Of a DNA stretch of 64,000 nucleotides, positions 5,184 to 64,000 are shown one piece after another. Origin of the DNA: Capsulimonadaceae bacterium (lineage in GTDB: Bacteria; Armatimonadota; Armatimonadia; Armatimonadales; Capsulimonadaceae); NCBI GenBank assembly GCA_965246745.1, contig OZ251980.1:1444280-1508279 (forward strand), written 5' to 3'. The position numbers and the translations under genes were made by a program. The notes beneath the pieces were generated by a model, which ran no database searches, had not been told where the DNA came from, and saw only the letters and a program-made list of their open reading frames with translations. The first letter of the stretch is position 1; each line of letters starts with the position of its first letter.

Positions 5184-6297
5184 AAAGGCTCCTCCCCAGC
5201 GCGGACACGGCGCACGCGGCGCGGCTGCTCGGATGCGACAGCACAAACGGAATGCCGCTGTTGACCGATGCCGGGACAATTTTGCCGTCGTTCGGGATTT
5301 GCCAGTCGGCGGGCCGCCCCAGCGCCCGCGCGGCGTCGGCGGGCTGCAATTTATTGGACGGCGCGGCGCGGTTCAAGCCCACCTGCACGGTGTTCAGCGG
5401 GACGGCATCCAGCCACAGCCGGGTCGCCGCCAGCGTCGCCAGGTCAAACAAATTGGCCGTCAGCAGCACGCAGTCGGCTTCTTCGAGCACGCGGCGGGAC
5501 GCTTCGCTCAGCGCCGCCGGCAGGTCCACGACAATGTGGGCGTATTCGCCGCGCAGCAGCGCCAGCAGCCGGTCCAAAAGCGCAAGCGTCAGGCCGTCGG
5601 CGTCCATCGGGGCCGCCGCGCCGGCCAGCAGCGCGAGGCCGCACGCATGCCGCTCGGCGTGGTCTTCCACCAGCGCGGCGTCCCAGTCCGCCGGGTCTGC
5701 CAGCGCCCAGTCCGCGAGAGTTCGGCGCGGAAAAAGGTTCAGCAGCAGGGCGGCGTCCGCAAACTGCGTGTGCAGGTCCAAAAGCACGGTCCGCTCGCCG
5801 GTTTCCGCCGCCAGCGCCGCCGCGAGGTTCACGGCCAGGGTGGTGGTGCCGACCCCGCCTTTCGCGCTCGTGACGGCGACAATCCGGCCCGGCGGCCGGG
5901 CGTCGGCGGCGGGCGTGCTGCGCCGGTGCAGGTCGGCATACACCGACTGCACGGCGGCTTGCAGCGCGGCCGCCCCGGCGGTGCGGCAGACGACTTCCCG
6001 CGCTCCCGCCCGCATCGCCCGCCGCAGGGCGGCGTCGGAGTCGTCGGCGCAGACCAAAATCGTTTCCAGCGGCAGGCCCGCCGCCGAAAGCGCCGCCGCC
6101 GCCGCAAAGCCGCCGTCCGGCGGCAGGTCGTCGGCAATCAAGACCACTTCTGGCCGCAGCACACGCGCCAGCCGCAGGCACTCGCCGCCGTCGCGGGCCG
6201 CGCCGAGGATTTCGATCTGCGCGTCCGAAGACAGCGCGGCTTGAAGCTGATCGCGGCGCTCGGGATGAGGGTCGGCGAGAAGTGTATGGATTGGCAT
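5167..6297 (-). CDS. cpaE: CpaE/TadZ: N-terminal receiver-like domain fused to a ParA/MinD-type ATPase
   Basis: 376 aa. The deviant Walker A is VTSAKGGVGTTTLAVNLAAALA, and the N-terminal region has a CheY-like fold pattern. Confidence 0.8.
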   Translation of the reverse strand: MPIHTLLADPHPERRDQLQAALSSDAQIEILGAARDGGECLRLARVLRPEVVLIADDLPPDGGFAAAAALSAAGLPLETILVCADDSDAALRRAMRAGAREVVCRTAGAAALQAAVQSVYADLHRRSTPAADARPPGRIVAVTSAKGGVGTTTLAVNLAAALAAETGERTVLLDLHTQFADAALLLNLFPRRTLADWALADPADWDAALVEDHAERHACGLALLAGAAAPMDADGLTLALLDRLLALLRGEYAHIVVDLPAALSEASRRVLEEADCVLLTANLFDLATLAATRLWLDAVPLNTVQVGLNRAAPSNKLQPADAARALGRPADWQIPNDGKIVPASVNSGIPFVLSHPSSRAACAVSALGRSLYAARR

Positions 6298-19718: not shown

Positions 19719-20864
19719 TTATAACACAGGTTCGGTGATTGTGCCAGCGGCGAACAAAACGCGCGTCAGGGCGGCCCCGGAGCCAAGCTCGGCTTGAGCG
19801 CCTTCCAGATACCGGACATTGTAAATCACCGACAGCGCGGCAAAGGCCGGGCCGGCCCGGCGCAGGCGGTAGGCGGCGCGGGCGGCCGGCAGCAGCAGCG
19901 CCCGCAGCGGTGCGCCGAGGCGCGGGGCGGCCAGAACGACGCGGGCCAGCAGGCGGGTGGCGCGATTGCGGGCGGCGTAGCCGTGCCGCACGGTGTCCCA
20001 CGACGTGTCCCCGCGCTGCGCCCGGACCACATCCAGGCGGCCATACGCAAACGGCACGGCGAGCCACGACGCAAACTTCCGGCGGGGCCGGTGGATGCCC
20101 CGCGCGTCGGGCGCGTACACAAACTCGACGCCGCGCTGTTTTTCGAGCCGCACGGCCAGCTCGACATCTTCCTGACGCGGGAACTGCTCGTCGAAGCCCC
20201 CGACGGCGACCAGGTGCCGGCGGCGCACGGACGCATTTCCCGAGTAAAAGTGATGCGGCCCGCAGCCGTCCCACTCGCCGGTGCGCCAGGCCGTGTACTG
20301 CTTTTCCAGCATCGCGTGCTCCCACGCAATCCACACCGGCTCCTGCCACAAAAGCGCCGGGTCGGGCACCATCGGCGCAATCACGACTGCCGTGTCGCGG
20401 CCGGCATGCCGGGCGGCATGGACCGCTAGAAACTCGGGGGCCGGCTCCACATCGTCGTCGAGAAACACGACAATCTCGCCCTGCGCTTCTTCAATGCCGT
20501 GGTTGCGGGCGCGGGCCGGACCGGCGTTCGCTTGGAACACGGGTCGCAGCGCAAACGGCGCGGCGCGGGCGTACTCGGCCAGAAACGCGTCGGTGCCGTC
20601 CGTGCTGCCGTCGGAAACCACCACCGCCTCAAACTGCGCGGCGGGAAACGTCTGCCGGGCCAGGCCGTCCAGCGTTTTTTGCAGGCTGTCCCGGCGGTTG
20701 AAAGTCGGGATGACGACGGACAGGAGCGGCCCCCCCGCCCCAATTCTGGGGAGCCGGAGAGGAAACGAGGCTTCCACTGACTCTGTATTGCTCCCCAGAA
20801 TTGGGGTTTTATTGGGGTGGGCGGGGGGGCTATCTCCAAAAACAGGGAAGTTTGGGTCGCTCAT
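19719..20864 (-). CDS. Family 2 glycosyltransferase (GT2)
   Basis: The motifs LSVVIPTFNRRDSLQKTLDGLARQ and AVVVSDGSTDGTD and the DxD region are present. The start ATG at 20864 overlaps the stop of the upstream acyltransferase gene. The N-terminal 40 codons span a palindromic element. Confidence 0.85.
   Translation of the reverse strand: MSDPNFPVFGDSPPAHPNKTPILGSNTESVEASFPLRLPRIGAGGPLLSVVIPTFNRRDSLQKTLDGLARQTFPAAQFEAVVVSDGSTDGTDAFLAEYARAAPFALRPVFQANAGPARARNHGIEEAQGEIVVFLDDDVEPAPEFLAVHAARHAGRDTAVVIAPMVPDPALLWQEPVWIAWEHAMLEKQYTAWRTGEWDGCGPHHFYSGNASVRRRHLVAVGGFDEQFPRQEDVELAVRLEKQRGVEFVYAPDARGIHRPRRKFASWLAVPFAYGRLDVVRAQRGDTSWDTVRHGYAARNRATRLLARVVLAAPRLGAPLRALLLPAARAAYRLRRAGPAFAALSVIYNVRYLEGAQAELGSGAALTRVLFAAGTITEPVL
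20727..20830. repeat. GC-rich palindromic element, copy 1 (TIR family GCCCCCCCGCCCCAATTCTGGGGAG), inside the GT2 N-terminal coding region
   Basis: The left arm is gcccccccgccccaattctggggag and the right arm is ctccccagaattgggg...ggggtgggcgggggggc. This is the same family as the copies at 59979-60107 and 60620-60749. Confidence 0.75.
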
Positions 20865-33720: not shown

Positions 33721-33784
33721 CTTTGCGCCCCTGTAGTTTCTCTGACCCGGCGGCCCGCGAAAAGTTGCACGGCTGTTAAAAAAA

Positions 33785-33911
33785 GCGAGGGAGTGAACTC
33801 CTCTCGCTAGTTATAGTCGTCCTTCGGACGAAAGACTGCAACCGTTTGGCTGCTTCTCGTCCGCAGGGCGACATTTTACAGCGAGAGGAGTTCACTTCCT
33901 CGCTTGCTCCC
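33785..33911. repeat. ~125 bp structured repeat, copy A (terminal inverted repeats gcgagggagtgaactcctctcgct / agcgagaggagttcacttcctcgc; internal cgtccTTCGgacg hairpin)
   Basis: Read directly from the sequence. It is homologous to the copy at 41531-41655. Confidence 0.7.
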
Positions 33912-41530: not shown

Positions 41531-41655
41531 AGCGAGGGAATAAATTCCTCTCGCTGAATGGCATCCTTCGGATGTAGGACTAGCACGCGTTTGGCTTTCT
41601 TCTCATCCGAAGGATGCCATTCAGCGAGAGAAGTTTACTTCCCCGCTTCTCGCTC
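41531..41655. repeat. ~125 bp structured repeat, copy B (gcgagggaataaattcctctcgct … cagcgagagaagtttacttccccgcttctcgctcc) with perfect 21 bp internal inverted arms bearing TTCG/GAAG loops
   Basis: It reads ctgaatggcatccTTCGgatg … catccGAAGgatgccattcag. It is homologous to copy A at 33785-33911. Confidence 0.7.
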
Positions 41656-56067: not shown

Positions 56068-56150
56068 TTTCGTTCTCTCCTGTTTTGTATATTTAGCCAA
56101 TTATCTAATTATAATAGTTTAGGCTGGGTTTGTCAAGAGGCAAAAAGCAG

Positions 56151-56310
56151 GGCGAACACAAGGTTCGCCCCTACGGGGTACAGAATAGGATTAGGAACGG
56201 GATGTAGGGCGCGAACCTTGTGTTCGCCCTTCTGGTTTATGTTCGCCCTTCGGGGCTGTTATTTACGCCCTTCTGGTTTATGTTCGCCCTGCTTATTGTG
56301 TTCGCCCTCC
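56151..56310. repeat. Cluster of short direct and inverted repeats built on TTCGCCC (ggcgaacacaaggttcgcc palindrome; TTCTGGTTTATGTTCGCCCT x2; GTGTTCGCCC x3)
   Basis: Read directly from the sequence. The cluster lies upstream of the radical-SAM gene. Confidence 0.55.
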
Positions 56311-56347
56311 CTTTCCTATCTGGTGCGGGCCTGCTCGCTGCTCTGCC

Positions 56348-59144: not shown

Positions 59145-59942
59145 TTACTGCGCCGTAAGCTGAATGCTCCAGCCGGTGATGTCGAGATCGGGGGTCGTGA
59201 TGCCCTCGGCGGTCGTGCCGCCGACAATGATGGGGACGCCGTTGACATACTGCGCCACATCCCCGGCGCTTTCGCCGACCCCCGACGTGGAATTGTTGAA
59301 TGTGTTCGCGAGCAGCGTCCCGCCGGCATCGCGGATGATCAAAGTAACATAGCTGTTGCCGGCCTGCTGCGGCGGGTAGAGCGCATCAAAATACTTCGGG
59401 ACCGTGATGTTCTGCCCGTTCGGCGGGACGACATTGGTGGCGATGAAATTGACCTCGAGGCTGTTGATCTGCGCGGCGGTAGTCGCGGTCGTGGTCGTCA
59501 GATAGGCCAGCGGAAGCTGAAAGGTCAGCGTGTTTCCGACCGCCTGCTTTTGGACCAGCCGGTCCTGCCCGAGCACCTGCGAGTTGAACAGGGTCGAGTC
59601 CACGGCGAAATAATTGAAACTGGTTCCGCCGGGCAAAGCGCCGTTGTATTCCACATAATTGGTGAACGCCCCCGCTGCGTAGCCGTTGCCGTAAGGCGCG
59701 GCGACCACGGGGATCGGCCCGGTGATGCTGGAATTGTTCGGCCCCGGCGTGTTGTTCACATTGAACAGCACATAATAATAATAATTCGGGTTGATGTTCC
59801 CGGCGACCGTCATGGTCACGAGAAGCTGCGGCCCGGACACCGGGCTGGTCCCGCCGCCGCTCGGCGACTTGGCGCATCCGGCGGGCAGAAGCAGCAGCGC
59901 GGTCAGCAGCGGCCAAAGACGAAGGCGTAGGGCGTGGTGCAT
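59145..59942 (-). CDS. putative lipoprotein, Asn/Thr/Gly-rich, hypothetical
   Basis: From the ATG at 59942 it reads MHHALRLRLWPLLTALLLLPAGCAK, a lipobox. The rest is low-complexity and beta-rich. Confidence 0.45.
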   Translation of the reverse strand: MHHALRLRLWPLLTALLLLPAGCAKSPSGGGTSPVSGPQLLVTMTVAGNINPNYYYYVLFNVNNTPGPNNSSITGPIPVVAAPYGNGYAAGAFTNYVEYNGALPGGTSFNYFAVDSTLFNSQVLGQDRLVQKQAVGNTLTFQLPLAYLTTTTATTAAQINSLEVNFIATNVVPPNGQNITVPKYFDALYPPQQAGNSYVTLIIRDAGGTLLANTFNNSTSGVGESAGDVAQYVNGVPIIVGGTTAEGITTPDLDITGWSIQLTAQ

Positions 59943-59971
59943 ACGCGTAGTATAGCAGGATTGAGCGTGTC

Positions 59972-61708
59972 TTGACAAGCAGAAGCGGCCCCCCCGCCCC
60001 CAATAATGGGGGAGTCCGAAAAGACATATCTGTGAGGGCGCGGCTTGCCGCGCCCTCTGTTCCTCGTCTGACTCCCCCATTATTGGGGGCGGGGGGGCCG
60101 CTTCTGCGGACGGCCCTCTCCGGCCTGCTGCTGGCGGGGGCGCTGCCGCACCTGGACTGGGGCTGGCTGGCGTGGGTCGGCCTTGCGCCGTTTCTCGCGC
60201 TGTTTCCGTTTCGCAGCAAGCGGGCGGCGTTTGGGCATGGGTTTCTGCTCGGCGTGTGTTACCTGGGCGGAATGGCCTACTGGGTCGCCGTTTTTGCCGC
60301 GCCCATTCTCGGCCCGGCCCTGGGCGTGCTCGGCTGGGCATTGGTGACGGCGTATCAGGCGTTTTACCTTGCCGTCTGGGCGCTCGGGGCGCAGTGGCTG
60401 GCGGGGCGCGGGGTCTGGGCGTGGCGACTAGGCGTGCCGGCGCTGTGGGCGGTGGTGGAATGGTGGCGGCAGTCGGGCGACCTCGGCTTCGGCTGGGGGG
60501 ACCTCGCGTACACGCAGCACCTGGCCCTGCCGGTGCTTCAGCTCACGAAGCTCTCGGGCATTTGGGGCCTGGCGTTTTTGATTGTTCTGGTGAATGTCGC
60601 GCTGGCGGAAGTGGTGAAGGCCCCCCCGCCCCAATTCTGGGGAAAAGCCCCCCCGCCCCAATTCTGGGGAGCCATATGGATAAGAAGGGCGCAGCAAGCA
60701 GCGCCCCTACGGGTTCTTTTCCGGCTCCCCAGAATTGGGGCGGGGGGGCAATTTCCCCTGGCCGTGGCCGCGCTGCTTGTCACTGTTCTAGCCTGCGGCG
60801 GCGTCAGCCTGCGGACCGAGCATCTTGCGCCGACTTTTACAGCGGCGGCTTTGCAGGGCAACATCTCGCAGAATGTCGAGCAGGACGCGGCGTACAAAGC
60901 GCGGGTGACTGCGACGTTCGGTGCCCAAACGCGAAGCGCGGCAGCGCGGGGGGCGACTTTGGTGGTCTGGCCGGAAACAGCGTATCCGGGCTATTTGCAG
61001 AGGGCGGACACAAGCCGCGCCCAAGTCGCGGGGGTTCTCGGCGAAACAGGGCAGACGGCGCTGATTGGGGGGGTGGACTTCGACCCGGCGGAGCGCAAAA
61101 ACGCCAATGCGCTGTTTGCGCTTTCCCCAAGCGGGGCCGTCACAGGCGTCTACCGCAAGCAGCACTTGGTGCCGTTCGGCGAGTTTGTGCCGGGGCGGAA
61201 ATGGCTGCCGTTTCTCGCGGCGCTGCATGTCACAAACTTCGACATGGCGGCCGGCACAGGGGAGCAGGGGCTGCTGGGCGGCGGGCCGGGCATCGGCAAG
61301 ATCGGCGCGGCAATCTGCTTTGAGTCGTCGTACCCGCGCGTCCTGCGCGAGCAGGTGCGGCAGGGGGCGGGGCTGCTGGCGATTTCGACCGACGACGCTT
61401 GGTTCGGGCGGACGGCGGCGGCGCGGCAGCATGCGGCGATTGCGGCGGTGCGGGCGGCGGAAACCGACCGTTATTTAGTCCGCAGCGCGGCGACCGGCGT
61501 GTCGCAGATTGTTGATCCGACCGGGCGGGTGCTGGCCGAAGCGGACTTGTTTCAAGCGTCGGTCGTCAGCGCCCCGGTGCAGTCCCGGTCCACCGTGACG
61601 CCGTATGTCCGCTGGGGCGACTGGTTTATCGGCGTCTGCGTCGTTTTAATTCTCGCCGTTAGTGCTCGTGCTCGCCGCGCAGGAACCGCTCGTAGTTCGG
61701 GCCGCTGA
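59972..61708 (+). CDS. lnt: Apolipoprotein N-acyltransferase Lnt, carrying two in-frame palindromic-element insertions
   Basis: The TM N-domain is LLLAGALPHLDWGWLAWVGLAPFLAL… The CN-hydrolase domain carries …LVVWPETA…ICFESSYP… (E/K/C triad context). The annotated TTG start lies inside element copy 2. Confidence 0.85.
   Translation: MTSRSGPPAPNNGGVRKDISVRARLAAPSVPRLTPPLLGAGGPLLRTALSGLLLAGALPHLDWGWLAWVGLAPFLALFPFRSKRAAFGHGFLLGVCYLGGMAYWVAVFAAPILGPALGVLGWALVTAYQAFYLAVWALGAQWLAGRGVWAWRLGVPALWAVVEWWRQSGDLGFGWGDLAYTQHLALPVLQLTKLSGIWGLAFLIVLVNVALAEVVKAPPPQFWGKAPPPQFWGAIWIRRAQQAAPLRVLFRLPRIGAGGQFPLAVAALLVTVLACGGVSLRTEHLAPTFTAAALQGNISQNVEQDAAYKARVTATFGAQTRSAAARGATLVVWPETAYPGYLQRADTSRAQVAGVLGETGQTALIGGVDFDPAERKNANALFALSPSGAVTGVYRKQHLVPFGEFVPGRKWLPFLAALHVTNFDMAAGTGEQGLLGGGPGIGKIGAAICFESSYPRVLREQVRQGAGLLAISTDDAWFGRTAAARQHAAIAAVRAAETDRYLVRSAATGVSQIVDPTGRVLAEADLFQASVVSAPVQSRSTVTPYVRWGDWFIGVCVVLILAVSARARRAGTARSSGR
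59979..60107. repeat. GC-rich palindromic element, copy 2: perfect 37 bp TIRs (gcagaagcggcccccccgcccccaataatgggggagt) flanking a 55 bp core that contains its own hairpin (gagggcgcggcttgccgcgccctc)
   Basis: Read directly. It overlaps the lnt 5' end. Confidence 0.8.
60620..60749. repeat. GC-rich palindromic element, copy 3: duplicated left arm (gcccccccgccccaattctgggga x2) and right arm ctccccagaattggggcgggggggc
   Basis: It lies inside lnt and is translated in frame as KAPPPQFWGKAPPPQFWG…LPRIGAGG. Confidence 0.8.
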
Positions 61709-62114
61709 CCCCGCAGTCGTAGCGGGCATCGCCCCGGTAGATTTCCAGCCCCGCGCGGAGGCCGCCGGGCGGGTAAAACGAGACAAACCGGAACATTCCC
61801 GACTTGCCGGGCAGGAGCGTTCCCGATGACACCAAATACGTCGGCGATTCGGCTTCGTCAAGCGCCACCTGCCAGCGCAGGCGGGACCAGCCGGGCGGGA
61901 CCGACTTGTGCATCCAAAAGGCGTTTTCGGGGCCGCCGCGTGTCAGCCCGAGCGCCAGCGGCTTCGGCTGATACTCGGGCGTGAAATAATACGGGCCGAG
62001 CCGGATTTGCGTGACTGCCGCCTGGCCTTCGCCGGCCCGCAGCAGCAGCTCGTACAAAAAGCCGTCGTTGCCTGCGGTGCAGGTCAGCATCGGCGCGGTT
62101 TCAGGAATAATCAT
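61659..62114 (-). CDS. hypothetical protein
   Basis: About 151 aa from the internal ATG at 62114 (MIIPETAPMLTCTAGNDGF…). No motifs were recognised. Confidence 0.35.
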   Translation of the reverse strand: MIIPETAPMLTCTAGNDGFLYELLLRAGEGQAAVTQIRLGPYYFTPEYQPKPLALGLTRGGPENAFWMHKSVPPGWSRLRWQVALDEAESPTYLVSSGTLLPGKSGMFRFVSFYPPGGLRAGLEIYRGDARYDCGVSGPNYERFLRGEHEH

Positions 62115-62390
62115 TGGGTGCGGCCTATCGGAGTGTAAAGTTGAAAGCCTGGGAAAATCCGGGGCACCTAACCCTGGGCAGCGGCGGTGCGCCATATCAC
62201 AGCAATTGCTATTATAACAACCTCTATCATAACACACTTTCCGGGAATTTGCGCCGGGACACACGGGAATTCTCAGCGAGGCGGCACGCAAAAAAAGGCC
62301 GGCCCCTGGCGGGGGCCGGCCTCGGCGATTAGCCTTCCCAAGTGATCCGGCGGACGGACCGGACCGGGCGCGGTGCGTTAGTCATGCGCG

Positions 62391-64000
62391 TTATTCTCCT
62401 GTCAGCACCGTCGAGGTCAGGTCCACGGCGGACGATGCGCTGCCCCACATGGCCCGGTCGGCCCAAACGGAGCTGCCCCACATGGCGCGGCTGGCCGACG
62501 GGTCATTGCTGCCCCACATGGCGCGGCTGAAAGTCAGTGCGCTGGACCCCCACATCGCGCGGTCGGCGCTGACCGACGCGCTGCCCCACATGGCGCGGCT
62601 GCCCCACATGGCCCGCAGGTCGGTCACTCCCGTGCCCCACAGGCTCGATCCCCACATCGCGCGGCCCATCACCACCGAAACGCTGCCGTCGGTGTTCAGC
62701 GCAAGCGCCGGGGACACCGCCGGTCCCAGCGCGGTCGCTTTGGACGACAGGGCGGCGGGAATGTTCAGGTAGCCCGCGCCGTAGGTCAGCGGGTCCTCGG
62801 TGCCGTCGGGCGCATACCACTTGTCGGCGGACAGCATCAAGCGGGCCTTGATCGTGTCGGGGGTCAGCGACGGGTCGGCTTGCAGCATCAGCGCCGCTGC
62901 GCCGGAAACGACGGGAGCGGCCATGGAAGTCCCCGACAGCCGGAAGTAGTCGGCGGAGTTGCCGTTTAGAAGGCTTTGGGAGGTCGGCGACGGGATCACA
63001 TAGCAGCTATACGGAATATCGTTCGCCCCGCCGGCATAGTTGTCCAAAGTCGAGCCGTGGGCATCCAGCGAGATCACTTTGTTGCCCGGCGCGATGATGT
63101 CGGGCTTCATCACCAGGTCCAGACGGCTCGGCCCCCGGCTGGAATAAGTGGCGATTTTGTCGTTGCTGCGATTGCCGTCGGTGCTTTTGGTCGCGCCGAC
63201 CGTGATCACAAACGGATCGTTGCCGGGGCTTTGGATGGAGCCGTAAGCCGTGCCCCAGCCTTCGTTGTCTTTGCCCGGCGTGTTGGTGCAGCCGCTGGTC
63301 CGTCCCTGATTGCCGGCGGCGCAGACGACGACGATTTTGGCCTGCCACAACGCTTCGGCGGCCTGGCAGATCGGGTCGGTGGTGTAGGACTCGCTGACCG
63401 GGTGGCCGAGCGAAAGATTGACGACCCGGATCGGTGCTTTTTTGTCGTCATTTTGGTGACGCAGCACCCATTGCAGGCCGCTGACGACGGTGGAAACCGT
63501 GGAGCCGCCGTCCTGGTCGAGCACCCGGACATCCACCAGGCCGGCATCCGGCGCGATGCCCATAAACGTGTGCGTGCAGACAGGAATGGAGAACAGGGGG
63601 GACAGCGGGAACGCCTGCGGCGAGCGGCTGCCGTTGCCGCCGATGATTCCGGCGACGTGGGTGCCGTGCCCGCAGGGGTCGGCGGCGTTGCTGCTGGATA
63701 CTCCGAGCGGCAGGCCGCTGAGGGCAACGTTTTTATCGTTTTTGTCGTTTCCTTTGCCGCTGTTCTTTTTGCCGAACAGCGAGCCGCTCACCGAGCCGCT
63801 CGGCAGCGGCGTTGAAAGGTTGACGCTTTGGGAAACGCGCGATTTGGCGAGGTTGAAATAATCGTCATGGCCGGTGCTGAGGTCTGCGACCGGCGAGACG
63901 CCGCTGTCAACCACCGCCACGGTGATGCCGGCTCCGGTGAGCTTGTAGGTCTGCGGATTTTTGCCTTTTTTGTCGTAGGTGGTGACGAATGCCTGGGAAG
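62391..64000 (-). CDS. S8-family subtilisin-like serine peptidase with C-terminal tandem RAMWGS repeats; the 5' end runs beyond the window edge
   Basis: The catalytic triad motifs are VAVVDSGV (Asp), HGTHVAGIIGG (His) and GTSMAAPVVSGAAAL (Ser). The reading frame stays open through position 64000 (…FVTTYDKKGKNPQTYKLTGAGITVAVVDSG). Confidence 0.85.
   Translation of the reverse strand, partial: SQAFVTTYDKKGKNPQTYKLTGAGITVAVVDSGVSPVADLSTGHDDYFNLAKSRVSQSVNLSTPLPSGSVSGSLFGKKNSGKGNDKNDKNVALSGLPLGVSSSNAADPCGHGTHVAGIIGGNGSRSPQAFPLSPLFSIPVCTHTFMGIAPDAGLVDVRVLDQDGGSTVSTVVSGLQWVLRHQNDDKKAPIRVVNLSLGHPVSESYTTDPICQAAEALWQAKIVVVCAAGNQGRTSGCTNTPGKDNEGWGTAYGSIQSPGNDPFVITVGATKSTDGNRSNDKIATYSSRGPSRLDLVMKPDIIAPGNKVISLDAHGSTLDNYAGGANDIPYSCYVIPSPTSQSLLNGNSADYFRLSGTSMAAPVVSGAAALMLQADPSLTPDTIKARLMLSADKWYAPDGTEDPLTYGAGYLNIPAALSSKATALGPAVSPALALNTDGSVSVVMGRAMWGSSLWGTGVTDLRAMWGSRAMWGSASVSADRAMWGSSALTFSRAMWGSNDPSASRAMWGSSVWADRAMWGSASSAVDLTSTVLTGE

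Follow-up and report, generated by a model that had tools for sequence, protein, structure and literature searches.

How can an essential membrane enzyme carry two long palindromes within its coding sequence and remain a complete, apparently working protein? The question is raised by lnt, the gene for apolipoprotein N-acyltransferase, in a 64,000-nucleotide (64-kb) stretch of contig OZ251980.1 from a Capsulimonadaceae bacterium of the phylum Armatimonadota; the whole of this stretch is called the window here. Two palindromic repeats, element A and element B, lie within the single open reading frame (ORF) of this gene. The current work indicates, with a probability of roughly 80%, that the two inserts are copies of a lineage-specific, high-copy palindromic family, standing in frame at tolerant cytoplasmic sites of an Lnt protein that is still functional. 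The positions of the features are collected in Table 1, in which L-numbers denote loci from relatives.

Table 1. Positions of the lnt gene, its palindromic elements and further repeat copies
Feature	Sequence	Position	Strand	Remarks
lnt ORF, apolipoprotein N-acyltransferase	window	59972-61708	+	578 codons, TTG start, Pfam matches
lnt start codon, conserved TTG	window	59972-59974	+	host sequence, upstream of element A
Element A, palindromic repeat, 129 bp	window	59979-60107		N-terminal cytoplasmic tail of Lnt, codons about 3-45
Centre of element A, degenerate REP-like GC hairpin	window	60034-60057		inner inverted repeat, 11-bp stem
Element B, palindromic repeat, 130 bp	window	60620-60749		TM6-TM7 cytoplasmic loop of Lnt, codons about 217-259
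Centre of element B, GTAG-tagged REP hairpin	window	60687-60710	-	minus strand reads GTAGGGGCGCTGCTTGCTGCGCCC
Third copy of the family	window	20727-20835		5' part of GT2 glycosyltransferase gene 19719-20864 (minus)
Intergenic cluster of a second GTAG-REP type	window	56141-56314		outside lnt
In-frame copy in DsbD, first	L051	2603-2714
In-frame copy in DsbD, second	L051	4022-4112
In-frame copy in LeuRS	L087	1751-1832
In-frame copy in MutS2	L094	2631-2712
In-frame copy in ThyX	L048	4564-4684
REP, repetitive extragenic palindromic sequence; TM, transmembrane helix.

The two elements and their host protein

Element A is built from two inverted arms of 41 nt (59979-60019 and 60067-60107), which are 98% complementary, with 38 nt of perfect pairing, and its centre reads GAGGGCGCGGC-TT-GCCGCGCCCTC, with GTGA and not GTAG ahead of the hairpin. 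Element B carries its left arm twice in tandem (60620-60643 and 60647-60673), followed by a single right arm (60723-60749). The arm motif GCCCCCCCGCCCCAAT, with up to 2 mismatches allowed, occurs 6 times in the window against an expectation of 0.21, a number reached in none of 100 shuffled sequences. The predicted single-strand folding energies are -70.4 kcal/mol for element A (z = -16), -56.1 for element B (z = -10) and -32.8 for the third copy (z = -5), which places all three among stable hairpins of the kind formed by the Rickettsia palindromic elements (RPEs) and similar repeats. An Rfam search of 59800-60900 returned only families of microRNA-precursor hairpins, far below their gathering scores, and no known RNA family. 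The third copy stands in a gene whose ORF is open from its ATG (overlapping the upstream stop codon as ATGA) through the repeat to the Glycos_transf_2 domain, which starts at residue 49. The preliminary description of this DNA had reported two palindromes with arms and inner hairpins in an unbroken lnt frame, as is borne out by the ORF and the arm coordinates; it had put the perfect arm of element A at 37 bp, one short of the actual length, and the copy at 20727-20835 is to be added to the two in lnt.

The host protein bears all the features expected of an Lnt. Pfam matches cover the membrane domain (LNT_N, residues 50-210, E = 1.8e-27) and the hydrolase domain (CN_hydrolase, residues 290-539, E = 9.8e-32), the latter with the Glu-Lys-Cys triad. 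In an alignment of 85 sequences, K396 and C449 are invariant, E335 is nearly so, and the segment W333-P334-E335-T336 is conserved. The AlphaFold2 model has a mean predicted local distance difference test score (pLDDT) of 83.6 and a predicted TM-score (pTM) of 0.84; compared with the Lnt structures of Escherichia coli and Pseudomonas aeruginosa it gives target-normalised TM-scores of 0.78-0.84, and a Foldseek comparison with Lnt in the Protein Data Bank (PDB) gives E = 1e-24.

The only long stretches of low confidence in this model are the two inserts, residues 1-38 (pLDDT 33-44) and about 217-256 (pLDDT 49-59), the second lying between helices 192-216 and 257-282. The helices beside the inserts are modelled confidently, so that the inserts occupy a tail and a loop compatible with the fold, as RPE-like inserts do, a point that a structural model had been proposed to check. 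Alignment with P. aeruginosa Lnt places element B after the sixth membrane helix, i.e. between TM6 and TM7 of the membrane domain, instead of between the membrane and hydrolase domains as was first proposed. The solved Lnt structures have an eight-helix fold whose two termini and TM6-TM7 loop all face the cytoplasm. Each insert contains 6 Lys/Arg against 0-1 Asp/Glu, a composition that fits the positive-inside rule.

Comparison with orthologous genes

Among 622 Lnt homologues found at E <= 1e-10, the best 120 were aligned with the window protein (121 sequences in total); the nearest named homologue is that of Capsulimonas. At the DNA level, both sites can be found empty in relatives: the loop of L111 has no insert, and the N-terminal tail of L116 has no element. 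The domains of Lnt are kept with the inserts in frame, and empty sites exist in its orthologues, as in genes that carry RPEs. Judged from this sequence comparison, both lnt copies are lineage-specific insertions, which is the outcome that an alignment to orthologues had been proposed to reveal.

Across the 121 proteins, insertions of 20 residues or more are confined to the N-tail, the TM6-TM7 loop and the C-tail. The loop is short in 62 proteins and at least 29 residues long in 44. At least four unrelated types of loop insert can be distinguished by their peptides: the family of the window, 'GLNPRASK...FKARGFSP', 'LTPELRSDPLL' and 'THP...PPxxGG'; the DNA was read for the first three. The insert of L112 has arms of 29 nt, and the only inverted repeats in that of L115 are short ones, 9-11 nt in length. 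When a tree is drawn from the core columns of Lnt, the occupants of the loop are interspersed with empty sites, for which recurrent independent gain is the simplest reading.

The repeat family across Armatimonadota

A scan of one genome per species detected the arm motif in at least 109 stretches, and all 80 of those listed belong to metagenome-assembled genomes (MAGs) of Armatimonadota. Together with the 3 copies in 64 kb of the window, this shows the many dispersed copies that are typical of RPE-like repeats. The loci fetched from relatives contain 245 arms and 62 paired elements. Elements of the family are about 70-170 bp long, with inverted arms of 24-42 nt (CCCCAATWMTGGGG arms) that are rich in G/C runs and enclose a variable centre. 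The core of the arm is CCCC(C)AAT(AA/TC)TGGGG(G). In the 63 copies with full 30-nt flanks that were used for the analysis of arms and flanks, inverted-repeat conservation extends 9 nt past the core and then gives way to flanks that are rich in purines on the left and in pyrimidines on the right. Left and right arms are combined about as often as chance predicts with respect to the variants CTAG and CCCG, which hints that each arm is an independent module and is not kept paired by selection for the long hairpin. Arms sometimes change together, as in the loop element of L113, where CCCCAAGTTTGGGG stands in both.

The family has the small size, terminal inverted repeats and lack of an ORF of its own that characterize miniature transposable elements with inverted repeats (MITEs); the target-site duplication of such elements was not found in 63 copies. 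The only distant pair of arms, in L022, was considered as an autonomous parent and rejected, since it encloses genes for a short-chain dehydrogenase/reductase and an aldo-keto reductase and no transposase.

The lnt gene is not the only one with in-frame copies. Nine of the 62 paired elements, the lnt loop copy included, lie in frame within long ORFs that look coding on both sides. Host genes confirmed by Pfam are those of ThyX, DsbD (with two inserts), an ABC-F ATPase, LeuRS, MutS2 and a protein in which the copy lies at the junction of acyl-CoA dehydrogenase and PIG-L. In four hosts the insert separates matched domains: in DsbD, in LeuRS (with the catalytic domain on one side and the editing domain on the other), in MutS2 (ahead of the Smr domain) and in the acyl-CoA dehydrogenase/PIG-L protein. 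In the ABC-F protein it comes after the second ATPase match, and in ThyX after the best Thy1 stretch. Most of these inserts read PPAPNNGG...PPLLGAGG. About a dozen more copies stand at the 5' end of a long ORF whose frame stays open, and these may be translated. Two other candidate hosts, the plus-strand ORF of L094 and an ORF of L045, were rejected for translations that look non-coding. Empty sites, a high-copy family limited to one phylum and in-frame copies in other housekeeping genes of relatives all agree with the RPE-like interpretation offered at the outset.

Frames often survive such insertions. The arms are almost without stop codons, apart from one frame of the AATAAT arm, which has TAA, and the 62 paired elements from relatives have on average 2.9 of their 6 frames open. 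Furthermore, 36 of the 62 copies fall into one length class modulo 3 (p = 6e-5), a class common to nearly all in-frame insertions. Nearly stop-free arms and a preferred length class imply that a sizeable share of random insertions leaves an ORF open.

The central hairpin and its link to transposase genes

The centre of element B is a GTAG-tagged GC hairpin and agrees with the description of GTAG-tagged REPs as imperfect palindromes of 20-40 nt with GTAG at one end. It contains GTAGGGGCG (60702-60710, minus strand), a motif found 60 times in the fetched loci, where a shuffled window gives 0.59 per 64 kb. In addition, 28 nt of this centre, AGAAGGGCGCAGCAAGCAGCGCCCCTAC, are identical to a repeat at locus L010 of a Capsulimonadaceae chromosome, where the repeat stands on both sides, inverted, of a 174-codon ORF (5330-5854) resembling a REP-associated tyrosine transposase (RAYT). 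This ORF matches the NCBIfam model 'REP-associated tyrosine transposase' (NF047646) with E = 6e-17 and 62 bits, below the cut-off of 80. Such flanking of a RAYT-like gene by the identical REP was found in a related genome and not in the window. Element A has a centre similar to the REP GTAGGGGCGCTGCTTGCTGCGCCCTCTGC, which flanks the same RAYT-like gene. A REP occupies the centre of roughly one arm element in four, these being the longer ones.

The RAYT-like ORFs were reached by tblastn with an E. coli RayT sequence, at weak matches of E = 0.14-0.3. A metagenome scan then revealed more than 451 relatives of these proteins, and 80 loci (L117-L196) were kept. The sequence GTAGGGGC flanks the gene or sits inside it in most of them: within 200 nt upstream in 52 of the 80 loci and within 200 nt downstream in 44. 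The outer arms were also examined as a possible REP of this RAYT clade, an idea rejected for now, as the arm motif occurs in none of the 80 loci, nor in L010 or L027. The inverted-doublet architecture of the REP doublets known as REPINs is present in the lnt elements, in outer arms that have no RAYT association in these loci. The lnt elements can be described as composites, in which the loop of a larger hairpin element encloses a REP.

A REP hairpin of the GTAGGGGC type also lies inside the transposase ORF itself in 59 of the 80 loci, and the ORF is still open in 57 of these 59. In six inspected examples the position is similar, shortly after the HUH motif (L027, 955-985). The translated hairpin reads, for example, '...RGAASSAPTG...', and the same peptide is found in Lnt N-tails of relatives.

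Passive tolerance or targeted insertion

The distribution of inserts would be explained by the following course of events. Arm hairpins may have been inserted first, and their loops may later have been invaded by a REP mobilised by a RAYT, which would act on single-stranded DNA. In Lnt, two permissive cytoplasmic parts have received such insertions, namely the N-tail just past the conserved TTG and the short TM6-TM7 loop. Selection would remove insertions everywhere except in tolerant places. Those that remain would be read as segments of about 42 residues, rich in Pro and Gly, with a positive charge and probably without ordered structure.

That inserts recur at these two sites could instead mean that insertion is targeted, for instance by single-strand transposases entering hairpins already present, or that the Pro/Gly-rich peptides were co-opted to serve Lnt, so that more than passive tolerance is involved. 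Several observations lend themselves to this: at least four unrelated types share one loop in 44 of 121 orthologues, with empty sites scattered among them on the tree; the site shows nested as well as tandem arrangements (L114); REPs lie in the loop of roughly one arm element in four; and the PPAPNNGG...PPLLGAGG frame dominates the internal insertions. A pure tolerance filter, however, predicts exactly what is seen for the large indels, which all fall in three cytoplasmic non-helical segments. The inserted peptides are unrelated between families, relatives with an empty site are common, and the frame preference may follow simply from stop codons (the TAA in one frame of the AATAAT arm). Targeting or co-option is therefore regarded as possible, at a likelihood well short of even.

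A bolder extension is equally tentative. The N-tail, the TM6-TM7 loop and interdomain linkers in general might be true hot spots in Armatimonadota, in which a first palindrome serves as a hairpin 'landing pad', used repeatedly by RAYT-type or other single-strand transposases. Palindromes could then be a systematic source of new disordered cytoplasmic segments throughout the proteome, and the in-frame REP in the RAYT gene might belong to the same self-targeting or self-regulating circuit.

Start codon and translation of the N-terminal tail

Whether element A is translated depends on where lnt begins. Upstream of the insertion, all 11 loci read keep the sequence TTG-ACA-ACN-AAR-GMR-CAR, which encodes MTTKEQ or MTSKVQ, and even the element-free L116 has it. 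The TTG is accordingly host sequence; the preliminary description had supposed it to be supplied by element A, which it is not. The differences within this start block are mainly synonymous changes at third positions (ACT/ACG/ACA, AAG/AAA, CAG/CAA), and 54 of the 121 Lnt proteins begin with an MTTKEQ-type motif. No stop codon interrupts the frame from the TTG through the insert to TM1 in any of the 11 loci, which represent at least 8 versions of the segment, 7 of them with an insert. Three of the loci had been picked because the gene caller had placed the start downstream, and the frame is open there too. An open frame in every locus argues strongly that the N-tail and its insert are translated.

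Alternatively, element A might be untranslated, a repeat in the 5' untranslated region or intergenic space that may modulate expression, with the true start of lnt downstream of it. Candidates for such a start are a TTG of the same frame at about 60083, within the right arm, which is the gene caller's choice in the sister strain, and a GTG at about 60030. The protein P0001 of that strain, whose Lnt is 96% identical, is called from MGAGGPLL..., inside the right arm. Many REPs at the N-termini of ORFs may really be extragenic (PMC3733652), a strong Shine-Dalgarno sequence is not visible, and the very stable hairpin beside the upstream TTG disfavours initiation there. Against this stand the register and openness of the frame from the conserved TTG in all 11 loci, including the three with downstream calls, and the mainly synonymous variation of codons 2-6. 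Moreover, element-free relatives, the cultured Capsulimonas among them, have an N-tail of 25-30 residues that begins M-T/A-T/I, and an initiation codon within the right arm would itself be buried in a stem. A downstream start with an intergenic 5' copy, which had been named as an outcome contrary to the RPE-like reading, is on this evidence unlikely.

The region around the start codon is shared with a divergent gene on the minus strand (59941-59978 region), predicted to encode a lipoprotein (MHHALRLRLWPLLTALLLLPAGC...). A scan for promoters and terminators found none inside the elements; its sole promoter-like site, on the minus strand, belongs to this neighbour and reads TTGTCA-18-TATACT. The -10 hexamer ends about 5 nt before the ATG, which suggests that the transcript of the lipoprotein gene may be leaderless. 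The block AGTATAGCAGGATTG...TTGACAA, which overlaps the lnt start codon, is kept in almost every orthologous locus read, three of them showing small variants. The conserved start block thus overlaps a promoter-like site, a caveat for the argument from conservation of the TTG.

Integrity of the gene

The sister strain L110, whose Lnt is 96% identical, allows a close comparison. There are 27 substitutions in lnt outside element B, and all indels lie within element B: 12 nt are affected in the region of the left arm, and in the right arm 15 nt. The arms of L110 pair perfectly over 42 nt. This pattern, like the preferred length class of the family, speaks for selection on the reading frame. Domains, residues of the catalytic region and the modelled fold are intact, and Lnt probably retains its function with the inserts in place.

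Two insertions in a single gene are unusual, and it might be supposed that lnt is decaying or inactivated and that the palindromes are tolerated in a gene no longer needed. This is very improbable. The 578-codon ORF is intact with K396 and C449 invariant and E335 conserved, the complete fold is modelled confidently, and the 27 substitutions separating the sister strains include no frameshift or stop, with all indels being multiples of 3. The same arrangement recurs in dozens of orthologues, and nearby LptF/G genes indicate a diderm envelope. Least credible of all is the notion that assembly artefacts or ancestral Lnt sequence, and not insertions, account for the extra segments, a notion for which nothing speaks except that most close relatives also have something at these sites, against the empty sites of L111 and L116, an occupant family that differs among relatives, and the presence of the same elements at an independent locus of the window (20727-20835) and in the independently assembled L110.

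Some results nevertheless weigh against the interpretation of the inserts as translated copies of a mobile, RAYT-linked family. Translation of the inserts is predicted from the comparison of loci, and a hairpin of about -70 kcal/mol starting 7 nt after the proposed TTG should hinder initiation. The copy census is drawn from 8-kb samples and the scan with at least 109 stretches, not from whole genomes. Among 63 copies, direct repeats of 2-9 nt showed no enrichment at any offset when compared with permuted flanks, the fuzzy ends limiting the power of this analysis, and no autonomous partner or transposase for the outer arms was found in the fetched loci. The 64-kb window holds no RAYT gene, and the centre of element A has no GTAG tag. 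The RAYT-like proteins of L010 and L027 score 62 and 65 bits against the curated NCBIfam cut-off of 80; in Pfam, one of them has no match at the 1e-3 threshold and the other falls just below the cut-off. A search of PDB sequences with the RAYT-like ORFs gave no match, and their NCBIfam matches have E values of about 1e-17.

Comparison with known palindromic repeats

In-frame palindromic inserts are the hallmark of the RPEs (Ogata et al. 2000), as recounted in PMC10969869 and PMC3733652. The elements described here resemble them in being high-copy palindromes of one lineage, placed in frame at loops or linkers of unrelated housekeeping genes, with the host ORF intact and the inserted peptides in preferred frames. 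The likeness proposed is one of behaviour, not of descent, with no evident relationship in sequence. The host belongs to another phylum of free-living, GC-rich bacteria, whereas Rickettsia has a reduced intracellular genome; the elements are composites of arms with G/C runs and a nested GTAG-REP; and several unrelated families occupy the same two sites of one protein across relatives.

The GTAG-REPs and REPtrons (PMC3733652, PMC3479197, PMC8266576) share with element B a centre consisting of GTAG and a GC-rich stem-loop, the same sequence flanking a RAYT-like gene. In the lnt elements, however, the REP is only the core, and the outer arms form a separate module for which no RAYT link was found. 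The RAYT-like proteins are divergent and score below curated cut-offs, and both lnt copies are intragenic instead of extragenic. REPINs (PMC3116915, PMC3337134) likewise consist of two inverted short repeats and a spacer that make one long hairpin, and they are non-autonomous, numerous and inherited vertically within a lineage. They are extragenic by definition, whereas both lnt copies are intragenic; the arms here have only a mini-hairpin of 4-5 bp and lack the GTAG tag. Bacterial MITEs (PMC10969869) are comparable in their 70-300 bp, terminal inverted repeats, lack of coding capacity and occasional fusions with host ORFs; they differ in that no target-site duplication was seen here in 63 copies and the fetched loci revealed no insertion sequence that shares these ends and could be the parent.

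The phenomenon itself is already known. Intragenic, codogenic REPs with GTAG/CGTC tags and their RAYTs have been reported in several phyla, including cases in tRNA synthetases and repair genes, with the caution that N-terminal cases may be extragenic (PMC3733652), and in-frame fusions by ERIC, BOX, QMITE1 and the MITEs of Anabaena have been reviewed (PMC10969869). The initial remark that such insertion is rarely reported outside Rickettsia therefore understates the precedent. A full-text literature search retrieved no paper tying Armatimonadetes to palindromic repeats other than CRISPR. The repeats described here are a new family in a new phylum that behaves like RPEs and intragenic REPs. It is unusual that the elements are composite, that two sites of a single essential membrane enzyme are hit so densely, and that so many unrelated families take part.

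Other repeats and neighbouring genes

The intergenic cluster at 56141-56314 comprises GGGCGAACACAAGGTTCGCCCCTAC, one inverted copy and three partial 'TGTTCGCCCT' repeats, with the appearance of an array of the type of bacterial interspersed mosaic elements. This second GTAG-REP type recurs both beside and within the RAYT-like gene of L027, and in L114 it makes up the centre of the N-tail element. Other long palindromes of the window are unrelated to the lnt family: one at 1240-1414 has 50-nt arms that are 88% complementary, and another family, AGCGAGGGA..TCCTCTCGCT, with arms of 44-49 nt, has two copies (33783-33905 and 41531-41647). These further palindromes imply that the genome holds several such families.

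At its 3' end (61708), lnt meets a conserved convergent gene (61659-62120, minus strand; about 151 codons, without a match in Pfam), which overlaps its last 50 or so nucleotides. The overlap is present in the window, as an ORF, and in L110, L112-L116, L197 and L199; in L198 the convergent gene lies about 100 nt downstream of lnt without overlap, and in L111 a different gene overlaps the end of lnt. Further on, a subtilisin-like protease ORF (62391-63920, minus strand; Peptidase_S8 in the sister locus L110) has near-identical short repeats at its end (...RAMWGS...RAMWGS...). Just past the lnt neighbourhood of L197, at 2755-2796, lies a TnpB-type gene (OrfB_IS605 / Cas12f1-like_TNB), which indicates that elements of the IS200/IS605 type occur in these genomes.

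Significance of in-frame palindromes in Armatimonadota

Some consequences of these repeats are practical. An element at the 5' end causes gene callers to start lnt inconsistently, and the inserts inflate the apparent diversity of proteins. Very stable hairpins are hot spots of indels and can disturb the assembly and annotation of MAGs.

For the biology of the group, the orthologues of Lnt provide a natural map of insertion tolerance for an essential eight-helix membrane enzyme, in which inserts are found only in three cytoplasmic non-helical segments. The GTAG-REP nested in a larger hairpin, together with the REP inside RAYT genes, offers a testable handle on the insertion sites of single-strand tyrosine transposases. 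The presence of selfish DNA inside protein-coding genes is hereby extended from Rickettsia and a few other lineages to the free-living, GC-rich Armatimonadota.

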